Below, one piece after another: positions 3,103-47,396 of a DNA stretch of 64,000 bases. The notes under the pieces are model-generated. The model searched no databases. It had not been told where the DNA came from and saw nothing but the letters and a program-made list of their open reading frames with translations. The translations under genes and the position numbers were made by a program. The first letter of the stretch is position 1. Each line of letters starts with the position of its first letter. The DNA comes from an uncultured Acidobacteriota bacterium (GTDB taxonomy: Bacteria; Acidobacteriota; UBA6911; RPQK01; JAPXNP01), in the NCBI GenBank assembly GCA_963777605.1, contig CAVZRV010000010.1, forward strand, positions 256,001 through 320,000, in the 5' to 3' direction.

Positions 3103-3188
3103 AGTGATGCTGATTAAATACGTAAACGACGCCAAAAACGTTCATTGGCGGTTCACCAATCTGGTTCCGTGTTATACTCTCCGCGCTC

Positions 3189-3401
3189 ATGCAGTGGACG
3201 CACAAAGGTATTGAGTTTGCCATCACGACCGAGGATCTGGGACCGTTCGTACTGGCGTCGGCCCGGGTTCCGAGAGAAGGCATGTTCGTCCGGGTCCGCC
3301 CCTTTTCCGCACTCGGTCGAACCGAAGATCAGGCAATCAGCATGCTGAAGTCCCAGATCGAGTTCGAGTATCGCCGCGTGCCGGAATTTGCCGCTTCCTG
3401 A
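3189..3401 (+). CDS. Small hypothetical protein (70 aa)
   Basis: ATG ORF ending 2 nt before the Rieske gene. TATACT hexamer about 10 nt upstream of the ATG. Confidence 0.6.
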   Translation: MQWTHKGIEFAITTEDLGPFVLASARVPREGMFVRVRPFSALGRTEDQAISMLKSQIEFEYRRVPEFAAS

Positions 3402-3403
3402 TC

Positions 3404-3724
3404 ATGATTTTCCACCCGGTCGCCAAGCTCGTCGAGCTTTCTGAGAGCGACGCGAAAGTTGTCCAACTCGAAGGTCGGCAAATCGCTCTCTTCCTGGCCG
3501 GAGGCGAGGTTTACGCCTACGACAATTTCTGCCCTCATCGCGGCGGTCCGCTGGGCGAAGGAATGGTCCGGGACGGGTGTGTAACCTGTCCTTGGCACGA
3601 CTGGACATTCGACCTGAAAACGGGTCGTCATGTTCGATACGCAACTGCTGCCCTGACCCGCTATCCGGCCCGCGTTTCAGGAGATGACGTATTGGTCTGC
3701 CCCTCCCCGGTCAGGCCAGATTAA
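3404..3724 (+). CDS. Rieske [2Fe-2S] ferredoxin (NirD-like)
   Basis: CPH and CPWH Rieske ligand motifs, FDLKTG. Confidence 0.93.
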   Translation: MIFHPVAKLVELSESDAKVVQLEGRQIALFLAGGEVYAYDNFCPHRGGPLGEGMVRDGCVTCPWHDWTFDLKTGRHVRYATAALTRYPARVSGDDVLVCPSPVRPD

Positions 3725-4661
3725 TCAGGGGGGATTCCACGGGTTTGCGGCCGGTCTTGCCGCTGAAGGAAGCTAACTGGCGGTCCGCAAGGTAACTCGA
3801 TCGAACCAGGGGCCCGCTCTCGACGTGGTCGAAACCGAGAGACTCCCCAAACGCCTTCCATTCTGCGAACTCGTCGGGATGATAGTGGCGCACGACAGGA
3901 AGGTGCCAACCGGTTGGGCGCAGGTACTGTCCCAGGGTGAGAATATTGACGCCCCTCTCGACCAGGTCGTTCATGACTTCGCGCAGTTCCTCCGGTTCCT
4001 CGCCAAGGCCCAGCATCAGGCCGGTCTTGGTGATTCCGGTCGGGACGATTTCGCGGGCCCGCTTGAGAACACGGAGCGTCACGTCGTAGCGACCGCCTCC
4101 CCGCGCCACCCGGTAAAGCCTCGGAACCGTCTCGACGTTGTGACCGAAAATCTCGGGTCCCGCATCGAGGACAGTTCTCAGCGAAGATTCCCTTCCCTGG
4201 AAATCGGGCACCAGCACTTCCACCACGCATCCCGGCCGCAATCGGCGGATCTCCGCGATCGTCTCGGCAAAGATCCCGGCGCCACCATCGTCGAGGTCAT
4301 CGCGGTCCACCGACGTGATGACCGCATGCTCAAGGTCCATGGCCGCAACGGCACGGGCGACGCGCCCGGGTTCTTCAAGATCATAGACCGGTGGCTTCCC
4401 CTTGGAAACGGCACAATATCGACAGCCACGGGTACACACTTCGCCGAGGATCATGAACGTTGCGACACCGTGAACCCAGCACTCGCCCATGTTTGGACAG
4501 ATCGCTTCCTGGCAGACGGTATTTAACCCCAGACCTCCAAGCAACTTCCTCAAATTGTGGACCTTCTCTCCGAACGGGGCTCTGACTTTCAACCACTCGG
4601 GGTGCCTTCGTCCGGGCTTCTGCTGAGATTCCGTCATCCCCATCAACATAGCAAATTTCAC
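3711..4661 (-). CDS. lipA: Lipoyl synthase
   Basis: CQEAICPNMGEC auxiliary cluster motif, radical SAM CTRGCRYC, VRSSY. True start may be ATG 4637. Confidence 0.97.
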   Translation of the reverse strand: MKFAMLMGMTESQQKPGRRHPEWLKVRAPFGEKVHNLRKLLGGLGLNTVCQEAICPNMGECWVHGVATFMILGEVCTRGCRYCAVSKGKPPVYDLEEPGRVARAVAAMDLEHAVITSVDRDDLDDGGAGIFAETIAEIRRLRPGCVVEVLVPDFQGRESSLRTVLDAGPEIFGHNVETVPRLYRVARGGGRYDVTLRVLKRAREIVPTGITKTGLMLGLGEEPEELREVMNDLVERGVNILTLGQYLRPTGWHLPVVRHYHPDEFAEWKAFGESLGFDHVESGPLVRSSYLADRQLASFSGKTGRKPVESPLINLA

Positions 4662-4877
4662 CGTTCAGGCCATCCTCAGGCACATGAGAAACGATGGTCG
4701 GGCGGGCCTCACTTTCGCCGGCAGAGAAACCTCCACAACTTGCCGATTCAACGTCTTCGCAGGGGTAGTCTTACAGCCTCGGTCTGGTATAATCCGCCTT
4801 GTGCCGGACAGCCCTGTCTTGTAGCATGGGGCTTTCTTCCAAGTGCCGAAAGTGCGGATAGATACGAGAAGCTCAAG

Positions 4878-5231
4878 ATGCTGAACTATTTTGGTTTCAT
4901 AGTGATGCTGTTGGTTTCCGGGGGAACTGTGGCCGCGATGTTCGCAGTCCACCACTGGCTCGGTCCGCGAGTCAGTAATCGGGTTCATGACGCCCCTTTT
5001 GAATGCGGTAACGAACCCAATCGGATCGTTCGGGGCCGGTTTTCGGTCAAGTTTTTTCTGGTCGCGCTTCTCTTCGTACTGTTTGATATCGAGTTGGTTT
5101 TCCTCTTTCCCTGGGCCGTGGTTTACAAGGAACTGGGACTGTTCGGCTTTGTTGAGATGCTCGTTTTCCTGCTCGTTGTACTTGTGGGACTTTTCTACTC
5201 GGTGAAGAGAGGAGCTCTTGAATGGCAATAG
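4878..5231 (+). CDS. nuoA: NADH-quinone oxidoreductase subunit A
   Basis: PFECG, FSVKFFLVALLFVLFDIE, FPWAV and GALEW motifs. Start at ATG 4878. Confidence 0.95.
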   Translation: MLNYFGFIVMLLVSGGTVAAMFAVHHWLGPRVSNRVHDAPFECGNEPNRIVRGRFSVKFFLVALLFVLFDIELVFLFPWAVVYKELGLFGFVEMLVFLLVVLVGLFYSVKRGALEWQ

Positions 5232-5866
5232 GCCAAGTCACCGTGCCGGCGGAAGGCGGTTTCTTCACCTCTAAGGTTGATCAGGCTGTCGGCTGGGCCC
5301 GGAAATACTCTATCTTCCAGTATCCCTTCGTAACCGCCTGTTGTGGAATGGAATACATGTCGGTCGCCTGCGCCCACTATGACATTGACCGGTTTGGCGC
5401 GGGTCTTCCAAGGTTCTCTCCCAGACAATCGGACGTGCTGTTTGTGGTCGGAACAATCAACCAGAAGATTGCGCCCATCCTCAAGCAGGTTTACGACCAG
5501 ATGTGCGCCCCGAAGTGGGTGATCGCGTTTGGCGTCTGCACCTGCACCGGTGGTTTTTACGACAATTACGCCGTTGTGCGCGGGATCGACCATGTCGTTC
5601 CGGTGGACATCTACATCCCCGGCTGTCCACCTCGTCCGGAAACGGTTCTGGAAGGGTTGATCAAACTGCAGCAGCGTATCCAGAACCAGAAGCCAGGCGA
5701 TCTGATTTACCGATTGGCTGTCCTGAGAATTCCCCAAGGATGTCAGCGACGAAGAGTGGAGCAATCAGGGCTATGGAACAAAGTCTCATACTCCGTAACG
5801 TGCAAGAGAAATTCGGTGACGCGGTGCTGTCATGTCATTCAGCACTCGGAGAAGATACGCTGGTGA
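5222..5866 (+). CDS. nuoB: NADH-quinone oxidoreductase subunit B (3' end probably frameshifted near 5725)
   Basis: TACCGME, SPRQSD and GCPPRPE motifs. Tail after about 5725 is atypical and overlaps nuoC by 94 nt. Confidence 0.92.
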   Translation: MAIGQVTVPAEGGFFTSKVDQAVGWARKYSIFQYPFVTACCGMEYMSVACAHYDIDRFGAGLPRFSPRQSDVLFVVGTINQKIAPILKQVYDQMCAPKWVIAFGVCTCTGGFYDNYAVVRGIDHVVPVDIYIPGCPPRPETVLEGLIKLQQRIQNQKPGDLIYRLAVLRIPQGCQRRRVEQSGLWNKVSYSVTCKRNSVTRCCHVIQHSEKIRW

Positions 5867-6256
5867 TCGCCAGGTCGAGCCTCCTCGAGGTGGCCCGGTA
5901 TCTGAAGGAGGAGGCCGATCCCCGGTTCAACGTCTTGATGGACCTGACTGCCGTCGATTTCTTCAAGCGCAAGCCCCGCTTTGAAGTGGTCTACCACTTT
6001 CTCTCCTTGCCGGCCAAAGCGAGGCTCCGAGTCAAGGTTCCGGTGGGCGAACCCGATCCCGAAGTGGAAACACTCTCGGCCCTGTGGCGAAGCGCCAACT
6101 GGTACGAACGCGAAGTCTATCGACATGTTCGGAATCAAGTTCCGCAATCATCCGGATCTCCGCAGGATTCTGATGTACCCCGAATTTCAGGGTCACCCTC
6201 TGCGCAAGGATTACCCGATCAATAAGAGACAGCCGATTATCGGCCCGAGGGATTGA
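5773..6256 (+). pseudogene. nuoC: NADH-quinone oxidoreductase subunit C, split by a +1 frameshift at about 6121 (real lesion or assembly error)
   Basis: First frame reads MEQ...LTAVD...RFEVVYH...ANWYEREVY. Second frame continues [18 protein letters not shown]...GHPLRKDYP. One extra base in GTC TAT C GAC ATG. Confidence 0.9.
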
Positions 6257-6262
6257 GAACCT

Positions 6263-7639
6263 ATGTCAACCTCAACCGAAATCAAAGAAATCAAGCCGGA
6301 GCAGATTCGTCCCGACGACTTGGACGAACATGAGATGCTTCTCAATATCGGTCCCTCGCACCCGGCCATGCATGGAGTCATCCGGATCCGGACCTTGCTC
6401 GACGGGGAAATGGTTCGGGACGCCGACATCGATATCGGCTACCTGCACCGCGGGTTCGAGAAACACTGCGAAAGCGGTTCATACACCCAGTGCTTCCCGT
6501 ACACCGATCGCCTCAACTATGTTTCACCCCTGATCAACAACTTCGGGTTTGCGCTGACCGTCGAGAAGTTGATGGGGCTCGAGGTCCCGGAACGGTGTCA
6601 GTTCATCCGCGTTATCATGAGCGAGCTTTCGCGGATCGGCGACCACCTGACCTGCATCGGTGCATCGACAATGGAGCTCGGTGCCATGACCGCCTTTCTC
6701 TACATGATGAAGGCACGGGAATGGCTCTGGGAACTGGTCGAAGGCGTAACCGGGGCTCGCCTGACGATCTCGTACGCCCGCATCGGTGGCGTCAAGGGCG
6801 ACTTACCCGAAGGGTTCGAAGACCGCTGCCGCATCGTCCTGGACAAGGTCTGGGACGTAATCGACGAAATCGATGTTCTGGTTACGCGCAACCGCATCTT
6901 CTATGACCGGCTTCGCGACATCGGTGTCATCAGCCAGGAAGATGCCCTCAACTACGGGATCACCGGTCCCTTCCTGCGCTCGACCGGCTGCGACTACGAT
7001 GTCCGCAAGGCCTTTCCCTACCACGCTTACGATCAGGTCGAATTCGACGTTCCGGTCGGCGAGCGGGGGGACAACTATGATCGCTATCTGGTCCGCATGG
7101 AGGAAATGCGGCAGTCGATTCGGATCGTCCGCCAGGCGCTGGACAAACTCCCTGGCGGTCCGACCAACGTTGACCCGGAGGGACGCATTATCGAGCCCAG
7201 TCTGATGGCCGACCTGGGCAAGTTCGGAAAGACCGGTGGGTTGCTCAGGAACGAGGTCCTGATTGAACCGACGCTGGAGGGAGCCCAGAAGAAATTCCAC
7301 GATCGCGTCCGGGCCGACAGCCGGGAAGCATGGCTTCCGGCCAAAGAGCAGGTCTATTCCAACATTGAAGCGCTGATGAACCACTTCAAGATCATCATGC
7401 TCGGCCACGGGGTTCGCCCGCCGAAAGGCGAGGCTTACGGTTTCGTGGAAGGGGCCAACGGCGAACTCGGCTTCTACGTGGTCAGTGACGGCACCGACAA
7501 GGCTTGGCGTGTCCGCTGCCATCCCCCCTGTTTCCCGATCATGGGCGGCCTTCACGAAGTCCTGAAAGGCGACCAGATTGCGGACATCATTGCGACGTTC
7601 GGCTCAGTGAACATGATTGCTGGAGAGCTTGACCGATGA
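6263..7639 (+). CDS. nuoD: NADH-quinone oxidoreductase subunit D
   Basis: GPSHPAMHGV, GYLHRGFEK, DRLNY and C-terminal GELDR. Confidence 0.97.
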   Translation: MSTSTEIKEIKPEQIRPDDLDEHEMLLNIGPSHPAMHGVIRIRTLLDGEMVRDADIDIGYLHRGFEKHCESGSYTQCFPYTDRLNYVSPLINNFGFALTVEKLMGLEVPERCQFIRVIMSELSRIGDHLTCIGASTMELGAMTAFLYMMKAREWLWELVEGVTGARLTISYARIGGVKGDLPEGFEDRCRIVLDKVWDVIDEIDVLVTRNRIFYDRLRDIGVISQEDALNYGITGPFLRSTGCDYDVRKAFPYHAYDQVEFDVPVGERGDNYDRYLVRMEEMRQSIRIVRQALDKLPGGPTNVDPEGRIIEPSLMADLGKFGKTGGLLRNEVLIEPTLEGAQKKFHDRVRADSREAWLPAKEQVYSNIEALMNHFKIIMLGHGVRPPKGEAYGFVEGANGELGFYVVSDGTDKAWRVRCHPPCFPIMGGLHEVLKGDQIADIIATFGSVNMIAGELDR

Positions 7640-8118
7640 ACACATTCCAGTTCACGCCGGAAAACCAGAAACGATTTGAAGAGATTTTGAGCCGGTACCC
7701 GCGAAAACGGGCCGCCATGCTGCCGGCGCTGCACCTGGCTCAGGAACAGAACGGCTTCATCAGCCCCGAGGTGGAACAGTTCGTTGCGGACCAGCTCGAA
7801 GTCCCTGTCGTTGACGTACGTGAGGTCCTCAGTTTCTATACCCTTTTCTTCGACAAGGAGATGGGCCGGCACCACATTCGAGTCTGCTGCAGCCTGTCGT
7901 GTTGGCTGAAGGGAAGCGACGAGGTCACCGCTTACCTCAGGGAAAAGCTTGGCTTCGAGGACGGAGAGGTTTCGGAGGACGGGCGGCTCAGCTGGGAGAC
8001 CGTCCCAGATTGCCTGGGAGCCTGTGAAATTGCCCCGATGATGCAGGTCGACAAGTACTTCGAGGGAGACCTGACCCGCGAGAAGATCGACGAAATTGTG
8101 AAAAAGCTGATGGATTGA
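7636..8118 (+). CDS. nuoE: NADH-quinone oxidoreductase subunit E
   Basis: LPALHLAQEQNG, VCCSLSC and CLGAC [2Fe-2S] motifs. ATGA overlap with nuoD. Confidence 0.95.
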   Translation: MNTFQFTPENQKRFEEILSRYPRKRAAMLPALHLAQEQNGFISPEVEQFVADQLEVPVVDVREVLSFYTLFFDKEMGRHHIRVCCSLSCWLKGSDEVTAYLREKLGFEDGEVSEDGRLSWETVPDCLGACEIAPMMQVDKYFEGDLTREKIDEIVKKLMD

Positions 8119-36285: not shown

Positions 36286-36807
36286 CTAGAAACCCTCGAG
36301 AATCGAAACGACGACACTCTCGGCGAAATCGTTGGCAATCCGTTGAAGAGCGGGATTCATTTCGGAGAAGAAGTTCTCTACATCGACGTTCACAATGTAT
36401 TGTTCACGAAAGATGTACTGGTCGTTCTTGAAGAGGACCGCACCCGTCCGCCGGTCAGTGAGTTCGATGCCGGCGTAGACCGTAACCAGCACGGTCGAAG
36501 CAAATGCCGTGCGGGCAAACGTCACCGGGTTGGCCGTCACCCGGATGACCCGCCCTTTGAGAACGGCATCCGCCTGCGAATTGCCACTGACGACGTCGTA
36601 ATTGGTCCGCTCAACGAGTTCGGAAACAAGCGCCCGCGTCAGGATCTGCTCGACCTTGTAGGTCGTTGTCTGATTCTTAAGCGGCTCGACGTCGATGGTG
36701 TGAATCGGCTGTGGCAACCGGTTCTTTGAAGCCACCCGGTACCCGCACCCGCAAAGCCCAACCACCATGACGACAGCCAACGCGGTGCGTTTCATCTTCG
36801 GCATCAC
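36286..36807 (-). CDS. lptE: LPS assembly lipoprotein LptE family
   Basis: Lipobox ending CGY and position upstream of holA. Confidence 0.8.
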
Positions 36808-40473: not shown

Positions 40474-41535
40474 GTGAACATGTTTCCCTCGCGGATCGAT
40501 CGAGTTCCTCCGGTGGGTCGAGCCTTCCTCTATCTATTCGTGCTGTCGTTGGCGCCTTCGGTCCCGGTCGTGGCGCAGCAACGGAGTCCGCTCGACGATT
40601 TGCCGTCCAATATCCGCATCCTGACTCAGTTCGGCGAGCGTGCCGTCTGGTCCCCGGACGGAACGCGAGTCGCGTTCGTCCATCGAACGCTGGGCGACGC
40701 GTTCGAGGTCGAGGTCGCAACCGGATCGATCAAATGCCTGACCTGTACCTTTAAGAACGCAGGCTTCTTCCGGGTTCACTACCTCCCCACCGGTGATTAC
40801 ATCCTGATCGGGCCCGTTGAGTCCACCGACCCCCAGCAGGCCCGATGGAACCGCGCGGCCCTCTGGTTTCTGGACAGGAATCGTCAACGACCTCCGGTCA
40901 GCCTCAACCGGAGACTCAACGAGGGGATCGCCACATCAAAGACTTCTCCAACCATTGCCTGGTCCGAGAGTTCCAGCCAGTACCCGGATCGTATACCTGA
41001 GGGCGTCTCGCGACTGATGACCGGAGAGGTCCTTAGCGATTCCAGTGGACCGCACCTGGTCAACATCAGACTGGTGCACCAGGACAAGTGGCCCCACTGC
41101 TGGCTGGAAGCCCAGGACTTTCGTCGAGACGACGCTGAACTGATCTATTCCTGTTACCAACCCGAAACCAAGGCAGACGTCATGGGAGTTGACCTTGCCT
41201 CGGGCAGGACGACCAACTACACGGCGTCCCCCGGAGTCTATGACGAGCCCGAGGGAATCTTCCCCGATGGCCAGTACACCACGGTCGAATCCGACCGGCA
41301 GAACCCAAGGGGAGATCACTACGTCGACATCTGGAAACTCCGCCTCGACAGCATGGGCGCGGATTACCAGCGTCTTACGCACTTCACCGATTACGACGGG
41401 TACAAGGCATCCAACCCCACGATCAGCCCAGACGGCCGGTTCATGGCCTTTCAGTTGGCCATGTCAAAAGACGAGGCCGGAGTGGGATACGGAATCCTGA
41501 TCATGGACTTGGCCGCAAAGTCGGGCACGCGATGA
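40474..41535 (+). CDS. Secreted TolB-like beta-propeller protein
   Basis: Signal peptide and WSPDG, FPDG, ISPDG (PD40-like) repeats. Confidence 0.8.
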   Translation: MNMFPSRIDRVPPVGRAFLYLFVLSLAPSVPVVAQQRSPLDDLPSNIRILTQFGERAVWSPDGTRVAFVHRTLGDAFEVEVATGSIKCLTCTFKNAGFFRVHYLPTGDYILIGPVESTDPQQARWNRAALWFLDRNRQRPPVSLNRRLNEGIATSKTSPTIAWSESSSQYPDRIPEGVSRLMTGEVLSDSSGPHLVNIRLVHQDKWPHCWLEAQDFRRDDAELIYSCYQPETKADVMGVDLASGRTTNYTASPGVYDEPEGIFPDGQYTTVESDRQNPRGDHYVDIWKLRLDSMGADYQRLTHFTDYDGYKASNPTISPDGRFMAFQLAMSKDEAGVGYGILIMDLAAKSGTR

Positions 41536-41871
41536 GGTTGCCGTCCGGAAGGCAATCGTGACCACGGCCCTTCACGGGTTCCGAGAAGCCAACTGAAACA
41601 AATCCTGCAAGTTGCCGACAACCAGCCCAACCGCGCTAGCCCAATCTCCCGTGCCTCCTCCCGTCAGATTTCGAAAAGTCAAACCAGAGTTGGACTATTT
41701 CTCATGCCCCACCTTGACTTTTTTCCTTCCGAAATCCCTCCAACTCGAACAAGTCCCATGAAATTAATGTCTTATGAAATCTTCAAGAATTGGAACGGGA
41801 CCTGCGATAACAGCCGGTTGACAGTGCCCCGGCCAGGGGACACGAACAGAAACCCAAACAGGAGGTGTGAA

Positions 41872-42093
41872 GTGAGAAGAAAGGTCATCGCGTTACTCGT
41901 CCTACTAATCCTGCCATTCCTGATGGCAGCCCCAGCAGCCGTGCCAGTCAGCGCTGACTGGGGCTACGCATACGCCAAGATGGGCATGTCTGACTTCGAA
42001 TTGGGCGTTTGGAGTGTTGGCACAGGGATCATGTGTGCCATGTCCTTCACAGGAGTAGCCGGTATCGGCTGTGTAGTATCCTCTGCCCTCTAA
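41872..42093 (+). CDS. Putative bacteriocin/RiPP precursor peptide (73 aa)
   Basis: GTG start with AGGAGGT Shine-Dalgarno. Leader MRRKVIALLVLLILPFLMAAPAAVPVSA, core DWGYAYAKMGMSDFELGVWSVGTGIMCAMSFTGVAGIGCVVSSAL. First gene of a Yip1/SpoIIM/ABC operon. Confidence 0.78.
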   Translation: MRRKVIALLVLLILPFLMAAPAAVPVSADWGYAYAKMGMSDFELGVWSVGTGIMCAMSFTGVAGIGCVVSSAL

Positions 42094-42110
42094 TGGATTG
42101 AAGGGGTTCT

Positions 42111-42752
42111 GTGAAGCTTACATTCGTATTTGAACCTTGGCACTACTTCGAATCAAAGCTTAGTCTAAGGCCAAATTGGATAGTCGCAGCCGCGGGTCCC
42201 CTTCTCTGCTTCCTTCTGCATTGGTTCTCCTTCTGTGTTATTCACAACAAACTCACACATCAAGTTGAAACAGACCTTGGCGATCGGCTGGCAGTCCTAA
42301 TATCAGCTAAATGGATCTATGTGATGGATTTCTTTGGAGCAGCAGGTTATGTCCTTATGCCAATTTTCGCAGCTACCATTGTGGCCTGTGTCGATATCCT
42401 TGCCCGGCAACCGAAGAAGTTGGATCGCTTCTTCGAATTCACCGGACTAAGTTTCTATAGTCTTTTACCCTATCTGCTTTCAGTGCTCTTACTAGCTCTC
42501 GCCTTTGATCCTCCCGCAATGAAGGCCGTCGGCCCAATCTCGAATGAAGATATTCGTTCCACTATTCAAGATTTTATGATCAGCGTCCGAGCAACGCCAA
42601 CTATCCTCTTGATCACGAATTTAGGCATCCTTTTCGATGGTTGGCTGGCAATTTTGATCGCCAATTCGTATCGAAGTGTTAACCAGTGTTCCCGAACAGC
42701 CTCGATTGCCACCTCAATCGGAGTCTTCGGGATGATTGTCCTCACGACTTGA
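42111..42752 (+). CDS. Yip1-like membrane protein
   Basis: N-terminal F.P..YF......PNW pattern and about 5 TM helices, same layout as the Yip1 protein at 62460. Confidence 0.68.
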   Translation: MKLTFVFEPWHYFESKLSLRPNWIVAAAGPLLCFLLHWFSFCVIHNKLTHQVETDLGDRLAVLISAKWIYVMDFFGAAGYVLMPIFAATIVACVDILARQPKKLDRFFEFTGLSFYSLLPYLLSVLLLALAFDPPAMKAVGPISNEDIRSTIQDFMISVRATPTILLITNLGILFDGWLAILIANSYRSVNQCSRTASIATSIGVFGMIVLTT

Positions 42753-42759
42753 GGAGAAC

Positions 42760-43290
42760 ATGAAAGACCTCCGTAATTTGGTCCTAATTAACATCTCAAT
42801 TCTCGGCGCCGCAGTTTTTCTGGGGATAGTGCTTGGATGGGATTCCGCAGGTCTCTTCACGATACAAGAACCTAAGTGGATGGGATTCTCAACCGCGCTC
42901 CAAGACTTTGTAAGAATTTCTCTGAATAACCTTTTCCTAGTCAGTCTCGCAGTAGTAGGCGCCGTTACTTTTGGGACGATGTCCATCGCCATCGTGATCT
43001 GGAACGGTCTATTCTTAGGATTCAATTTACCTACGATTGCTGCGCTGGGCATTCAAGAAGCCGGCTATCTCGTCCTCTACCTGCCGCTTGAATTTCTGGG
43101 AATCTGCATGGCAGCGACCGTAGGTGAATCCGCAGGCTGGTGGCTGTTCCGCTCTCTTATAAGCCCTACCCCTCCGGATTATGGAAGTTGGAGAGGCACC
43201 GTTGGACTTGCGAAGACTTCTGCTCTTCTCATTCTTGCTTCGGCTGGACTCGAGACGACCGCAAAGATAATTCGGAATTATGGAACCTAA
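42760..43290 (+). CDS. SpoIIM/DUF95-family membrane protein
   Basis: I.LNN...G..TFG......NG..LG...LE pattern ending in LET. GAGGAG RBS before ATG 42760. Confidence 0.8.
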   Translation: MKDLRNLVLINISILGAAVFLGIVLGWDSAGLFTIQEPKWMGFSTALQDFVRISLNNLFLVSLAVVGAVTFGTMSIAIVIWNGLFLGFNLPTIAALGIQEAGYLVLYLPLEFLGICMAATVGESAGWWLFRSLISPTPPDYGSWRGTVGLAKTSALLILASAGLETTAKIIRNYGT

Positions 43291-43780
43291 ATTACGATCC
43301 AAGTGGAAGAGGCTGGACCACCGCGCCGCATTTCTGGCTTTGGGCGTGACATTGGCCGTGCTCGCATCAGCGGGAGCCCTGATCCATCCTCACCCACCAG
43401 ACCGGGAGAATCTCTCTGGAATTATGTGCGTTGATCTTGACGGGAACTCCAGGGAGTGCACTCAAGTCATGGGAAACAAATCCCTTCTAGTTTTCAGTGT
43501 CTTCTGCACAAATTGCCGGGATCTCATCTCAGAGATTCCGCGCTCTGAGAAACTGGTCGGAATCAGCTCTCACTCTCTCCCCTATTTGCGCTATTACCGA
43601 ATCAAGCTGGGGATTCGGTGGCCGATCGTGCGTGTTGAAAAGCCCGTACTCCGCGAAATTGGGGTAACCACGCTGCCTACGCTACTCAGACTTGACGCCA
43701 ACGGGAAAATCGTGTCCCGTCTAACTGGAAAGGCGAACATCCTATCGGCGATTCGACTGCTTCATGAGGACCAACGATAA
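43280..43780 (+). CDS. Membrane-anchored thioredoxin-fold protein (TlpA/ResA-like)
   Basis: N-terminal TM, LLVFSVFCTNC (CxxC) and cis-Pro loop GVTTLPTLLRLDANGKI. Confidence 0.78.
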   Translation: MEPKLRSKWKRLDHRAAFLALGVTLAVLASAGALIHPHPPDRENLSGIMCVDLDGNSRECTQVMGNKSLLVFSVFCTNCRDLISEIPRSEKLVGISSHSLPYLRYYRIKLGIRWPIVRVEKPVLREIGVTTLPTLLRLDANGKIVSRLTGKANILSAIRLLHEDQR

Positions 43781-44646
43781 TGGCCACACTTCGAATCTCA
43801 GATCTGGTCAAGCGATTTCCGAAATTCCAACTTGGACCGATCAACTTCGAGCTAACCCCCGGGACAGCCTGCGGTCTGCTTGGGCCAAACGGGGCGGGCA
43901 AGTCCACGCTGATGAACTGCATCGCGGGGCAACTTACGCCTGATGAAGGGAAGGCTAGTTGGGATGACACGCCCCTCACCCGTCGAAACTGGAAGATCCG
44001 CGAACGCGTCGGATACGTACCGGAGCAGAGCCGCATGTACGACTCCGTGACAGTCGCTCAGACTCTCCTTCTATGTTCCAAGATATACGCACAGTGGGAC
44101 AGCAGATTTGTGTCAGATTGGCAACAACGATTCCAACTCGACGGGATTAAGAAGGTTGGGAATCTGTCAAAGGGCATGCGCACGAAACTGCAACTGCTTG
44201 TTGGGTTGGCACACGGTTCAGAACTCTTGCTCTTGGATGAGCCTACAGCAGGCTTGGATCCCGATGCCCGTGTCGACCTTCAGCATTATATTCGTCAACT
44301 GATCAAGGCAAAGAGCGCGTGTGCCATCATCTCATCACATCTCTTTGAGGACATCGAGACCATGGCTAGTCACGTCAAGATTATCCGTGCAGGACGAATC
44401 GTATTCGACCTCGCGACCACTGAACTTCCTGGGCTGAGGCTTTTTCGAGTTATTTCCGGAGCTGCCTCCAAGAGCAAGGTCTCAGAGCTGGCCCTTCTAG
44501 CGTCTCACAATCAGGATGGGGACCTTCTGTTGCTGGCCCCCGAATCGGCAAAACCAATGATAGAGAGGCAATGTCCAGAATGTTTCATCACGGCTGAGAC
44601 GATCAGCTTAAAACAGATATATTTTCTAACCAAGAACGAGTCCTGA
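43780..44646 (+). CDS. ABC transporter ATP-binding protein (ABC-2 exporter type)
   Basis: Walker A GPNGAGKST, LSKGM signature, LLLLDEPTAGLDP and SSH. TAATG overlap with the upstream gene. Confidence 0.96.
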   Translation: MATLRISDLVKRFPKFQLGPINFELTPGTACGLLGPNGAGKSTLMNCIAGQLTPDEGKASWDDTPLTRRNWKIRERVGYVPEQSRMYDSVTVAQTLLLCSKIYAQWDSRFVSDWQQRFQLDGIKKVGNLSKGMRTKLQLLVGLAHGSELLLLDEPTAGLDPDARVDLQHYIRQLIKAKSACAIISSHLFEDIETMASHVKIIRAGRIVFDLATTELPGLRLFRVISGAASKSKVSELALLASHNQDGDLLLLAPESAKPMIERQCPECFITAETISLKQIYFLTKNES

Positions 44647-44649
44647 TTC

Positions 44650-45300
44650 ATGAGACACGTATTCATTCTGATTGCCAAGGAACTATTCATACACCGCCTT
44701 GAATTGTCTATATCAACGGCAGGAATTTCAGGAATCGCTATATTTGCGTTCCAAATGAGATCTCCGGAAACCTACACGCAAGGTCTTGTAATCATTTCTA
44801 TGCTCAATGTTGCTCTAATGATGGCCTCGACAGAGTGGCTTTCTTACATGGAGCGGGCTAAGGGAACCTTTCTCTGGCTTCGTACGCTTCCTGTTTCGGA
44901 CAAAGCAGTAGTCACTGCAAAATTCGTTACGAACGGGATAATTCTCACTTGCTGCTACCTCTCAGCTGTCTTAATCCTGAATCTACATGTCGCTGTTGAG
45001 CGCCTGCTTCCAGTTATCGCATTCTGGTTGGGATTGCTTTCTCTTGGATCCTTTATGCTCTTCACTAAGCTCGTGTTGAGCCGGCGGCTCGGGCCGAGCG
45101 TCCCGCTGATGGTAGTCTTCGTTCTCATGATGGGTTGGAGGGCACTCTCCACTCGAGCACCCCACGCGGCGTCGATGGTGTCTAGTTTCCTTTCGAATCC
45201 CTTTGTCTTCATCACGCTCGAGGTTCTCTCAATCCTGTCCTTCTGGTACATGATGTGGATCTGGATTGCCTCCCGAGACACTCACAAACTAATCGACTGA
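44650..45300 (+). CDS. ABC-2 type permease
   Basis: About 6 TM helices and ER.KGT...LRTLPVS...VV.AKF motif. Confidence 0.88.
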   Translation: MRHVFILIAKELFIHRLELSISTAGISGIAIFAFQMRSPETYTQGLVIISMLNVALMMASTEWLSYMERAKGTFLWLRTLPVSDKAVVTAKFVTNGIILTCCYLSAVLILNLHVAVERLLPVIAFWLGLLSLGSFMLFTKLVLSRRLGPSVPLMVVFVLMMGWRALSTRAPHAASMVSSFLSNPFVFITLEVLSILSFWYMMWIWIASRDTHKLID

Positions 45301-45514
45301 CCGGACCTCTCGGATCTCTGTCTTGAGGTCCCAGCGGTCCTTTGGGTCCCATTTTCCCGGTTCTTGAGACCGCGACGGGACCGTGGGGCTTCTGATGAAA
45401 TGGATATCTTTGCCTCTCCACAATCGGCCGCCCAACCGGGCGCGGCTTTCCCTGACCCCTGGCCCTTGATTGAAATCAGTTCCTGGCCGGTCGATACTGG
45501 GATTGCAGGGGCAC

Positions 45515-45946
45515 ATGAAAATGAAGCAACCATCCTGGCTGGAAGAACTCGATCACACGGCTGACGCAGGCATTGTCGTCTCCGCCGGAAATCTCTCCGA
45601 ACTTTTCGAGCGGACGGCATGGGCGATGTTCAACCTGATCCTCGACATGGATGTGGTTCGACCCGTCGAGCAGGAATCGATGGCAGTGGAAGGATCCGAC
45701 CTGGAGGACTTGATGGTTCGCTGGCTCTCGGAACTCAACTATCGGCACATCACCAGAGCCAGAGTGTTTGGCGGCTTTCGAGTCAAAGAGATTAACGAGC
45801 GGTCCCTGCGCGCGGACATTCAAGGAGAGGCGATTGCCCCTGGTCGCCACTCCGTCTTCGCCGAAATCAAAGCCGTTACCTATCATGGACTCAGTATCAT
45901 CGCGACTGATCGCGGGTTTCAGGCTAGAGTAATCTTTGATCTGTGA
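45515..45946 (+). CDS. Archease
   Basis: LDHTAD, WLSEL, EIKAVTYH and terminal IFDL. Confidence 0.95.
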   Translation: MKMKQPSWLEELDHTADAGIVVSAGNLSELFERTAWAMFNLILDMDVVRPVEQESMAVEGSDLEDLMVRWLSELNYRHITRARVFGGFRVKEINERSLRADIQGEAIAPGRHSVFAEIKAVTYHGLSIIATDRGFQARVIFDL

Positions 45947-45953
45947 GGCAGCC

Positions 45954-47396
45954 ATGGCAGACATAACCCTCGTCAAGCGGACTGACTTCTGCTGGGAAAT
46001 TCCTCCCCGGGGCGGGATGCGTGTTCCGGCCAGGATTTACGCGACCGAGCAAATGGTCGATGCCATCCTCTCGGACAATGCTCCTCAACAGGCGATGAAC
46101 GTCGCTCACCTGCCCGGCATCGTGAAGGCGTCGCTCGCCATGCCGGATATCCACTGGGGATACGGCTTCCCGATTGGAGGCGTGGCCGCATTCGATCCCG
46201 ACGAGGGGGTGATCTCCCCGGGCGGAGTCGGCTACGACATCAACTGCGGCGTCCGCCTCATGGCAACCCACCTGGAACTCAGTGCCGTCAAACCGAAGAT
46301 CAAGGCTCTGATGCAGGACCTCTACATCCAGATTCCGACCGGCGTCGGCGCCTCGGTGCCGCAAAAGGTGAGCCGGAAAGAACTCGAGCACGTGGTCCAG
46401 GAAGGAGCCGGCTGGGCAGTCAAGAACGGACTCGGCGAGCGCGCTGACCTTGACCTCATCGAAGAATGCGGCTGCATCCGGCAGGCCGATCCCGGGCAAG
46501 TCTCGGAACGGGCGTGGGAACGGGGTTTTGCCCAACTCGGCACGCTCGGATCTGGCAACCATTTTCTGGAAGTGGGCTACGTTGCCGAGATCTACGATCG
46601 GGACGCAGCACAGGTCCTGGGCCTGCAGGAAGACCAGGTCACGGTGATCATTCACTGCGGCTCCCGCGGTTTCGGGTACCAGGTCTGCGATGATTTTCTC
46701 GCGCTCATGGACAAGGCGGCCCGAAAATACGGAATCGAATTGCCCGACCGCCAACTGGCTTGTGCACCAGTCCAATCCGAAGAGGGACAGGCGTACCTGG
46801 GTGCCATGCGCTGCGCCATCAACTACGCATTCGCAAACCGCGAGGTCATCGCCCAGCGGGTCCGCGAGTCGTTCCTCAGGGCCCTCTCAATCTCGCCGCG
46901 CGATCTCGGCGCGCGCACCGTCTACGAGGTCGCCCACAACATCGCGAAGTTCGAACAGCACGAGGTTAGCGGGAAGAATCGCATGCTCTGCGTCCATCGC
47001 AAGGGCGCCACGCGGGCGTTCGGTCCCGGTGAGCGCGAGATCCCGGAACGCTACCGGTCGGTCGGGCAACCCGTCCTCGTACCGGGTGACATGGGTCGTT
47101 ACTCCTACGTCCTGGTCGGCACCAGCCAGGCAATGGAGGAGACTTTCGGAAGTACCTGTCACGGCGCAGGCCGGGCCATGAGCCGCCACAAGGCGATAAA
47201 GGCGGCACGCGGCCGGGATATCAGCCGTGAACTGGAGAGCAAGGGGATTTTCGTGATTGGCCACAGCAATAGAACGCTGGCCGAAGAGATCTCCGACGCG
47301 TACAAGGATGTTTCGGAGGTGGTGGACGCGTGTCAGGGAGCCGGGATTTCCCGAAAGGTCGCACAGTTGAGGCCCATCGGATGCATTAAAGGTTGA
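45954..47396 (+). CDS. rtcB: RNA ligase RtcB (archaeal-like)
   Basis: MPDIHWGYGFPIG, GVGYDINCG, GTLGSGNHF, HNIA, VHRKGAT, HGAGR and AYKD. Confidence 0.97.
   Translation: MADITLVKRTDFCWEIPPRGGMRVPARIYATEQMVDAILSDNAPQQAMNVAHLPGIVKASLAMPDIHWGYGFPIGGVAAFDPDEGVISPGGVGYDINCGVRLMATHLELSAVKPKIKALMQDLYIQIPTGVGASVPQKVSRKELEHVVQEGAGWAVKNGLGERADLDLIEECGCIRQADPGQVSERAWERGFAQLGTLGSGNHFLEVGYVAEIYDRDAAQVLGLQEDQVTVIIHCGSRGFGYQVCDDFLALMDKAARKYGIELPDRQLACAPVQSEEGQAYLGAMRCAINYAFANREVIAQRVRESFLRALSISPRDLGARTVYEVAHNIAKFEQHEVSGKNRMLCVHRKGATRAFGPGEREIPERYRSVGQPVLVPGDMGRYSYVLVGTSQAMEETFGSTCHGAGRAMSRHKAIKAARGRDISRELESKGIFVIGHSNRTLAEEISDAYKDVSEVVDACQGAGISRKVAQLRPIGCIKG

Follow-up and report, generated by a model that had tools for sequence, protein, structure and literature searches.

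The closest described counterparts of the locus reported here are the gene clusters of circular bacteriocins. A precursor gene accompanied by SpoIIM, YIP1 and a two-component ATP-binding cassette (ABC) transporter forms the typical backbone, as in the pumilarin and altitudin clusters (bioRxiv 10.1101/2025.10.31.685828), and nearly every circular-bacteriocin cluster holds SpoIIM (PMC7132975). The cores comprise 58-82 amino acids (aa) across the described subgroups (bioRxiv 10.1101/2025.10.31.685828), are without disulfides and follow leaders of 2-48 residues (PMC6131525). Of 6,928 predicted circular precursors, 6,925 come from Firmicutes, 2 from Actinobacteria and 1 from Thermotogae (PMC8534725), and mining guided by PF01944 returned nearly exclusively Firmicutes, besides five propionibacteria and one cluster of the Gram-negative Novosphingobium (PMC5695211). 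Cutting and ligation of circular bacteriocins are unsolved, with DUF95/SpoIIM and Yip1 as the standing suspects; a role of DUF95 in circularisation is without direct evidence (PMC6131525), and Yip1 proteins are also contained in leaderless-bacteriocin clusters (PMC11580447). A full-text literature search, with the supplements of the mining papers outside its scope, found no paper describing an acidobacterial circular-bacteriocin cluster. The present analysis concerns a six-gene operon with such machinery in a stretch of 64,000 nucleotides (nt), here called the window, from an uncultured Acidobacteriota bacterium (contig CAVZRV010000010.1, positions 256,001 to 320,000).

The six genes lie co-directionally on the + strand at 41872-45300 in the order peptide, Yip1, SpoIIM, thioredoxin, ATPase and permease. 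The locus probably serves the production and export of a bacteriocin-type peptide and the self-protection of its producer, by means of circular-bacteriocin machinery to which a lineage-specific disulfide enzyme has been added. This reading, drawn from the genes and from sequence comparison, is preferred because the gene set is the backbone seen around proven bacteriocins and because the peptide is kept in 18 of 19 loci. The habits of the system are bacteriocin-like in that the peptides are tandem and diverged, the distribution is patchy, the G+C content drops and one related locus (in genome G010) is without a peptide.

The original prediction had related the gene set to the core set of circular bacteriocins, and the published clusters match it, YIP1 included (PMC8534725; bioRxiv 10.1101/2025.10.31.685828). 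It had also recognised no described family with this combination. The backbone of precursor, SpoIIM, YIP1 and ABC transporter is published, and the thioredoxin-bearing form is confined to four loci. The acidobacterial locus appears to be a variant of the published backbone. Its machinery is known, with a small precursor, SpoIIM/DUF95, an ABC ATPase with a membrane partner and YIP1 all present, but its peptide has neither a core of 58-82 residues nor a Cys-free core, and no sequence relation to known precursors was found.

The Bacillus clusters (pumilarin, altitudin A/S, cerecyclin) hold the same four machinery families beside a small precursor gene, and some of them carry several precursor genes, as do the acidobacterial loci. 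The window differs from them in its diderm host, in a core of 40-45 aa instead of 58-82, in two conserved Cys and in a Sec-like leader; it adds a thioredoxin-like gene (or, in relatives, a VKOR-DsbA gene), has no CycB/As-48B-like protein, and its peptide shows no sequence similarity to the Bacillus circular precursors. Like the window, subgroup II (gassericin A, acidocin B, plantaricyclin A) combines a long leader with a very hydrophobic core whose net charge is low or negative, and its cluster is minimal, made up of small membrane proteins, DUF95, ATPase and a membrane protein. Its cores, however, have 58 aa and no Cys, it is described from Bacillota only, and homology to the window peptide was not detected.

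Precursor peptide and machinery proteins

By inspection, residues 1-28 of the window precursor form a signal-peptide-like leader (RRK, 17 hydrophobic residues, then V-S-A before D29), and residues 29-73 form the core, which runs from DW to C55-x11-C67 and six further residues. The core measures 44-45 aa, and the boundary V-S-A/D-W coincides with its start. The AlphaFold2 (AF2) model of the precursor is moderate (predicted local distance difference test, pLDDT, 69); it has helices at residues 2-18, 23-36, 41-58 and 62-72, and Cys55 and Cys67 are predicted to flank a turn. For the window peptide, no match to Pfam or NCBIfam reaches the cut-off of the family concerned. A match to DUF3309 was rejected (19.1 bits, below the cut-off, with the alignment on the leader), as were, by eye, lipoprotein, PEP-CTERM and GlyGly-CTERM signals, there being no lipobox and no C-terminal basic cluster.

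The peptide family is rare: a hidden Markov model (HMM) search of 1.84 billion representative proteins yielded 61 clusters at E<=0.001, of which 37 reach E<=1e-10, and the named genome records found are all Acidobacteriota. P0009, an 883-aa tandem-repeat protein in which one short profile motif was matched 12 times, was left out of all counts, so that the family statistics rest on 60 peptides. Two Cys stand within the last 30 residues in 54 of these, with the spacing C-x10-C in 44; the subfamily of the window peptide is marked by C-x11-C and by ...AKMGMS.... The peptide ends exactly six residues past the second Cys in 53 of 54. The core starts at a conserved aromatic residue, usually Trp and often after Gln, Ala, His or Asp, from which 40 residues lead to the end in 35 cases (the family mode), and its final position holds a small or hydrophobic residue. 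In 51 of 54 peptides a basic start (K/R) leads into a hydrophobic run of 9 residues or more; between this run and the conserved Trp lie 0-39 residues, and conservation begins at the Trp. Since conservation starts there and the boundary matches the site in the window, the C-terminal core of 40-45 aa is taken as the functional unit. Small residues at -3/-1 stand right at the core boundary in 23 of 54 peptides, while 31 of 54 have no signal-peptidase-type site there, and release of the core in many relatives would require a further cut. The core is hydrophobic enough over its C-terminal 25-30 residues to remain in the membrane.

The HMM comparison suggested with the original prediction gave a divided result, in that the window proteins assigned to SpoIIM, Yip1 and thioredoxin stay below threshold whereas their homologues support the assignments. 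The SpoIIM-like protein scores 22.4 bits with PF01944 (cut-off 26.9; profile positions 5-159 of 163) and the Yip1-like protein 15.9 bits with PF04893 (cut-off 28.6). Scanned singly, 14 of 14 SpoIIM-like homologues match PF01944 (best 1.9e-13) and 8 of 11 Yip1-like homologues match PF04893 (best 9.7e-13). The thioredoxin-like protein reaches no curated threshold (Thioredoxin_2 of Pfam, E 0.069; ResA of NCBIfam, 0.0055), whereas a profile of four sequences from its family matches solved thioredoxins at 5.7e-5, with the CxxC and the cis-Pro stretch (G-I-x-S-V/L-P-T-L-L) aligned, and ResA at 0.018. The permease is likewise sub-threshold (ABC2_membrane_5, 23.0 bits against a cut-off of 25, E 6.6e-5); the ATPase passes the threshold of PF00005 (ABC_tran).

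The window ATPase shares 47-52% identity with its counterparts in related loci. Its best NCBIfam matches are to Pmt and lantibiotic-protection ABC-2 transporters, namely PmtA (2.4e-41; 141.9 bits against an equivalog cut-off of 350) and then galliderm_ABC (4.6e-32). Pmt and lantibiotic-protection ABC-2 exporters both export a membrane-active peptide and protect the producer. Unlike the window operon, these systems are without SpoIIM, Yip1 and thioredoxin partners, and the scores fall far short of the equivalog cut-offs. For the SpoIIM-like protein, AF2 gives a confident model (pLDDT 90.5) of five long helices; a Foldseek search of the PDB with this model gave nothing at E<=0.001, and tblastn of the protein against plasmids gave no match. 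Complex prediction for the Yip1-like and SpoIIM-like proteins scored 0.01 against a mark of 0.32, which is evidence neither way.

Conservation of the module and of its disulfide enzymes

The SpoIIM-like gene has no further copy of high identity in its own genome and is patchy among relatives (4 of 60). The 11-kb contexts of its matches were compared open reading frame (ORF) by ORF. Genomes G012 and G007 hold the whole set in the same order, including a thioredoxin-like gene with CxxC and a peptide of 72 aa (27-28% identity), and in G024 a different small peptide adjoins SpoIIM. Locus L008 of G010 (G010:C12:702000-713000, 3168-5773, - strand) has SpoIIM, thioredoxin, ATPase and permease genes without peptide and Yip1; profile A6 found no peptide gene anywhere in this 96% complete genome, and L008 may be an orphan immunity locus or a remnant.

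In a profile search of the phylum, 49 of 401 genomes proved to have SpoIIM-like genes, a tally that takes in the unpublished genome G202, otherwise unused. The peptide profile found its family in 8 of the 401 sampled genomes, all among the strongest SpoIIM matches and with the peptide adjoining SpoIIM. With jackhmmer and the peptide HMM, six more genomes with peptide, SpoIIM, ATPase, permease and Yip1 were obtained from the best SpoIIM contexts. The permease motif [GQ][TS]F[ALV]WLR[TS][LM]P, taken from alignment A5, was scanned over 185,579 species genomes and returned 12 loci, all in Acidobacteriota metagenome-assembled genomes and mostly in Vicinamibacterales; seven were new, with the module again present. 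G007 and L060 are the same contig.

Altogether 19 loci were examined (the window, L008-L010, L042-L048, L051, L059, L061, L063-L066 and L068), and all except L008 carry one to three tandem, diverged, homologous peptide genes; the peptide of L059 was recognised by eye, and those of L048 and L051 are a long-loop variant. The original prediction had thus rightly counted on a small peptide gene in homologous operons. Since the synteny is conserved in other genomes, the arrangement is more than chance. The Vicinamibacterales loci (L043-L047, L059-L068) share with the window the peptide family, SpoIIM, ATPase, ABC-2 permease, Yip1 and a sigma-54-type promoter-like element; they differ in having an orphan gene product of about 410-418 aa, where the lineage of the window has the thioredoxin-like gene instead. 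This conserved orphan of about 410 aa adjoins Yip1 (L047:2641-3873, + strand; also L043, L046, L065 and L066). It has no Pfam and no PDB match, and the ESM-Atlas gave a weak MchC/SelO-like lead (0.87).

Several observations were made on individual loci. L065 and L066 are two near-identical copies near both ends of one chromosome record, with peptides that differ by few residues; the pair may be a real duplication or an assembly-end overlap. The Yip1-like gene of G012 (L009:5593-6251, - strand) is broken into two frames (87 + 131 aa), which may point to a frameshift or a pseudogene. A second, more distant SpoIIM locus is present in the genome of the window (L054; G000:C27:331000-344000, minus strand, 4178-7683). 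It encodes an 85-aa precursor, a protein of about 140 aa with four transmembrane (TM) segments, SpoIIM-like and Yip1-like proteins, an ABC ATPase and an ABC-2 permease, and no thioredoxin; the precursor has a signal-like leader and a Gly-rich core of about 63 aa with two Cys, nearer in size to known circular bacteriocins. L011 (G024:C1:1987000-1998000, 4529-6355) encodes an 86-aa Gly-rich, Cys-free peptide, a 130-aa TM protein, a SpoIIM-like and a weakly Yip1-like protein. Its peptide resembles that of L054 and belongs to no Pfam family.

The CxxC is invariant in all four thioredoxin-like proteins of the loci (CTNC, CPSC, CPAC, CGAC), each of which has an N-terminal hydrophobic anchor; the window protein starts with a basic stretch followed by one hydrophobic helix. 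The family is very rare, with 9 proteins at E<=1e-5 among 5.8 billion. One of them, P0067, is 81% identical to the window protein and also has 166 aa. The window gene is catalogued as a 103-aa product (P0068) whose start lies past the membrane anchor; the 166-aa form is favoured because the homologues and P0067 are long. CxxC, thioredoxin fold and N-terminal membrane anchor are shared with ResA/TlpA-type oxidoreductases. For disulfide-containing class II bacteriocins, as in the window, a thioredoxin-fold accessory protein is encoded beside the Cys-containing secreted peptide. In contrast to these oxidoreductases and accessory proteins, the dipeptide of the CxxC varies in the window family (TN, PS, PA, GA). 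A metagenome scan with the thioredoxin-like protein gave only three generic thioredoxin genes (30% identity), and the module accompanied none of them.

The thioredoxin-like gene occurs in four loci, all in the family of the window. A VKOR-DsbA fusion gene (VKOR 1.1e-24, Thioredoxin_4 8.3e-12, DSBA 5.9e-6) lies inside the operons of two loci of another genus (L048:3887-5089 and L051:3638-5077, both - strand). There the peptides have the longer inter-Cys loop, and the fusion gene follows that of a conserved small protein with two TM segments downstream of Yip1. L042, the only locus whose peptide is without the Cys pair, is also without an oxidoreductase gene. Disulfide enzymes seem to have been recruited to peptide loci at least twice, in different branches. 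A disulfide in the product is plausible, because 54 of 60 peptides keep the Cys pair and two related loci have a disulfide enzyme of another kind, VKOR-DsbA. The disulfide module of the original prediction is upheld to this extent, but not as a fixed part: judged by its occurrence in four loci, the thioredoxin gene is an accessory of one lineage, outside the core of the system.

Proposed function and alternative explanations

In the mechanism proposed, the operon would be transcribed from a sigma-54-type promoter. The 73-aa precursor would cross the inner membrane by its Sec-like leader and be cut after VSA28, which would leave a hydrophobic, slightly acidic core of 45 aa. The CTNC thioredoxin-like protein would face the periplasm and may form or proof-read a single disulfide, Cys55-Cys67, which would close a Gly/Pro-rich loop near the C-terminus. 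By analogy with what is thought of the Bacillota clusters, SpoIIM/DUF95, Yip1 and the ABC-2 transporter would handle the membrane-embedded peptide, by release or secretion and perhaps maturation, and protect the producer; the product would be a membrane-active peptide used in competition.

Several results weigh against a bacteriocin-type system of this kind. The window's own Yip1, SpoIIM and thioredoxin matches are below the Pfam cut-offs, and the peptide profile, searched against all PDB chains, matched no solved circular bacteriocin. The net charge of the cores is mostly 0 to -3, unlike that of most bacteriocins, which are cationic, and the peptide diverges no faster than the membrane proteins (27-28% versus 22-36% identity). 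The window operon has no gene for a small cationic or hydrophobic immunity protein, a four-TM candidate being present only in the type of L054 and L011, and no membrane-fusion or TolC-like gene, which leaves release from a diderm cell unexplained. About 12 loci with Cys-pair peptides have no oxidoreductase gene; the thioredoxin gene is therefore dispensable for the family and an optional accessory. The peptide-less locus of G010 retains its thioredoxin gene, which fits a role beyond maturation of the locus's own peptide. The roles of DUF95 and Yip1 are unproven even in the model systems (PMC6131525).

The core might be not only disulfide-bonded but also head-to-tail cyclised, by ligation of Leu73 at the C-terminus to Trp30 or a residue beside it, and would then represent a new, very small class of circular bacteriocins. 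We consider this rather unlikely. The signature triad of precursor, DUF95 and ATPase is present together with YIP1 and the permease, but an As-48B/CirB-like large membrane protein is absent from the operon. Subgroup II is also neutral or acidic and very hydrophobic and has long leaders, yet no sequence similarity to any known precursor was found, the core has 40-45 aa as against 58-82 aa in the described subgroups, and circular bacteriocins are stated to be disulfide-free (PMC6131525). The shape of the core would suit ligation: it begins at a conserved aromatic residue, ends on a small or hydrophobic one and has no C-terminal follower, the distance of six residues from the second Cys to the end being invariant in 53 of 54, and the 31 of 54 peptides without a signal-peptidase-type site at the core boundary call for a second processing event. 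The AF2 precursor model, only moderate at pLDDT 69, is uninformative on ligation. The leader is of Sec type in appearance, whereas removal of the DUF95 gene of leucocyclicin Q makes the mature circular peptide build up intracellularly (PMC7132975, PMC6131525); cyclisation therefore precedes export there, which counts against a cyclised product with a Sec-type leader. It is doubtful that the product is the smallest known backbone-cyclised bacteriocin (about 40-45 residues), with one disulfide and periplasmic maturation after Sec export. Were it so, the SpoIIM/DUF95-Yip1 pair could act outside the cytoplasm. Circular bacteriocins would also have a second, separate origin in Acidobacteriota, where they would comprise three or more peptide families (the present one, the long-loop one and the Gly-rich one of 63 aa from the genome of the window).

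Two further explanations do without a weapon. The peptide could reside in the membrane as an accessory or a substrate of a housekeeping ABC-2 exporter for envelope maintenance, with SpoIIM and Yip1 as scaffold and the thioredoxin-like protein in envelope redox upkeep. Membrane retention of the hydrophobic C-terminal 25-30 residues, the acidic or neutral cores, the lack of an outer-membrane export gene in the operon and a peptide that evolves no faster than its neighbours would all fit, and the phylum has SpoIIM/DUF95-like genes widely beyond loci of this kind (49 of 401 genomes). The system itself, however, is rare and patchy (8 of 401), its peptide genes occur as tandem diverged copies, its composition departs from the flanks and its gene set is that found around proven bacteriocins, so that this explanation is held to be improbable. 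Very improbable is a mere immunity or resistance island, in which ABC-2 transporter, SpoIIM, Yip1 and thioredoxin would guard against a foreign peptide, the thioredoxin perhaps by reducing its disulfide, and the small ORF would be a decayed or regulatory remnant. G010 indeed keeps SpoIIM, thioredoxin and ABC genes without a detectable peptide gene, and ABC-2 transporters of this type, with PmtA and lantibiotic-protection ATPases as best NCBIfam matches, confer peptide immunity; but the peptide gene of the window is intact, with a strong Shine-Dalgarno sequence and every hallmark of the family, and at least one intact peptide gene is present in 18 of the 19 loci.

This compact and divergent diderm version is a minimal system in which to probe the functions of SpoIIM and Yip1. 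The approximately 60 small two-Cys peptides are a new family from a phylum of soil bacteria that resist cultivation, and the thioredoxin-like and VKOR-DsbA branches provide a natural experiment in the recruitment of disulfide enzymes to peptide loci. Should the product be linear and disulfide-looped, use of the SpoIIM-Yip1-ABC module would extend beyond circular peptides.

Operon layout and neighbourhood

The features of the operon are summarized in Table 1. Six packed co-directional genes with these gaps, overlaps and products had been described in the original prediction, and the ORF list and gene starts confirm them. The intergenic distances are +17, +7, -11, -1 and +3 nt, with the SpoIIM-like start taken as ATG 42760, and the six genes are translationally coupled. 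No further small ORF is present between them in the window ORF list. The peptide gene starts at GTG 41872, 6 nt past AGGAGG. ATG 42760, preceded by GAGGAG, is most likely the start of the SpoIIM-like gene.

Table 1. Coordinates of the operon features in the window
Feature	Position	Strand	Remarks
Precursor peptide gene	41872..42093	+	73 aa; nested in longer frame 41704-42093
Yip1-like multi-pass membrane protein	42111..42752	+	213 aa; PF04893 E 0.013, sub-threshold
SpoIIM/DUF95-like membrane protein	42760..43290	+	176 aa from ATG 42760; 184 aa if TTG 42736
Thioredoxin-like protein, membrane-anchored	43280..43780	+	166 aa; CTNC motif
ABC transporter ATPase	43780..44646	+	288 aa; PF00005 4.4e-29
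ABC-2 type permease	44650..45300	+	216 aa; family motif GTFxWLRTLP
Shine-Dalgarno AGGAGG of peptide gene	41860..41865	+	direct sequence reading
Sigma-54-type -24/-12 promoter-like element, TGGAAC-N5-CTGC	41791..41806	+	81 nt upstream of peptide start; putative promoter

The sigma-54-type pattern for the window was written after the site had been seen; it has two matches in the window and is weak alone. In the family, 11 of 21 peptide genes are preceded by TGG-N9-TGC at a distance of 81-109 nt, the background rate of the motif being 0.125 per 300 nt. The window copy (TGGAAC...CTGC) departs from the consensus and is weaker than the family copies. A scan for consensus sigma-70 promoters and terminators gave counts not above those of shuffles, and an Rfam scan found zero families anywhere in the window.

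The G+C content of the operon is 50.5% versus 58.5-60% in the flanks, and the drop at the locus amounts to 8-12 points in the lineage of the window. Flank synteny was uninformative as to insertion, the neighbouring archease being only 31-33% identical in the closest relatives. A lipopolysaccharide-containing host had been predicted, and this agrees with LptE, which is encoded in the window at 36310-36702 on the - strand (44.9 bits, above the cut-off); LptE and the acidobacterial affiliation identify the host as a diderm acidobacterium.

Upstream of the operon, at 40474-41535 (+), lies the gene of a secreted-looking protein of 353 aa with a PD40/WD40-like beta-propeller repeat (2.4e-07); its G+C content is normal, and the gene is therefore outside the low-G+C island. 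Directly downstream, at 45470-47396 (+), come an archease gene (PF01951, 4.5e-38) and then an ORF of 486 aa, which from its sequence is probably RtcB; the pair is seemingly unrelated to the operon.

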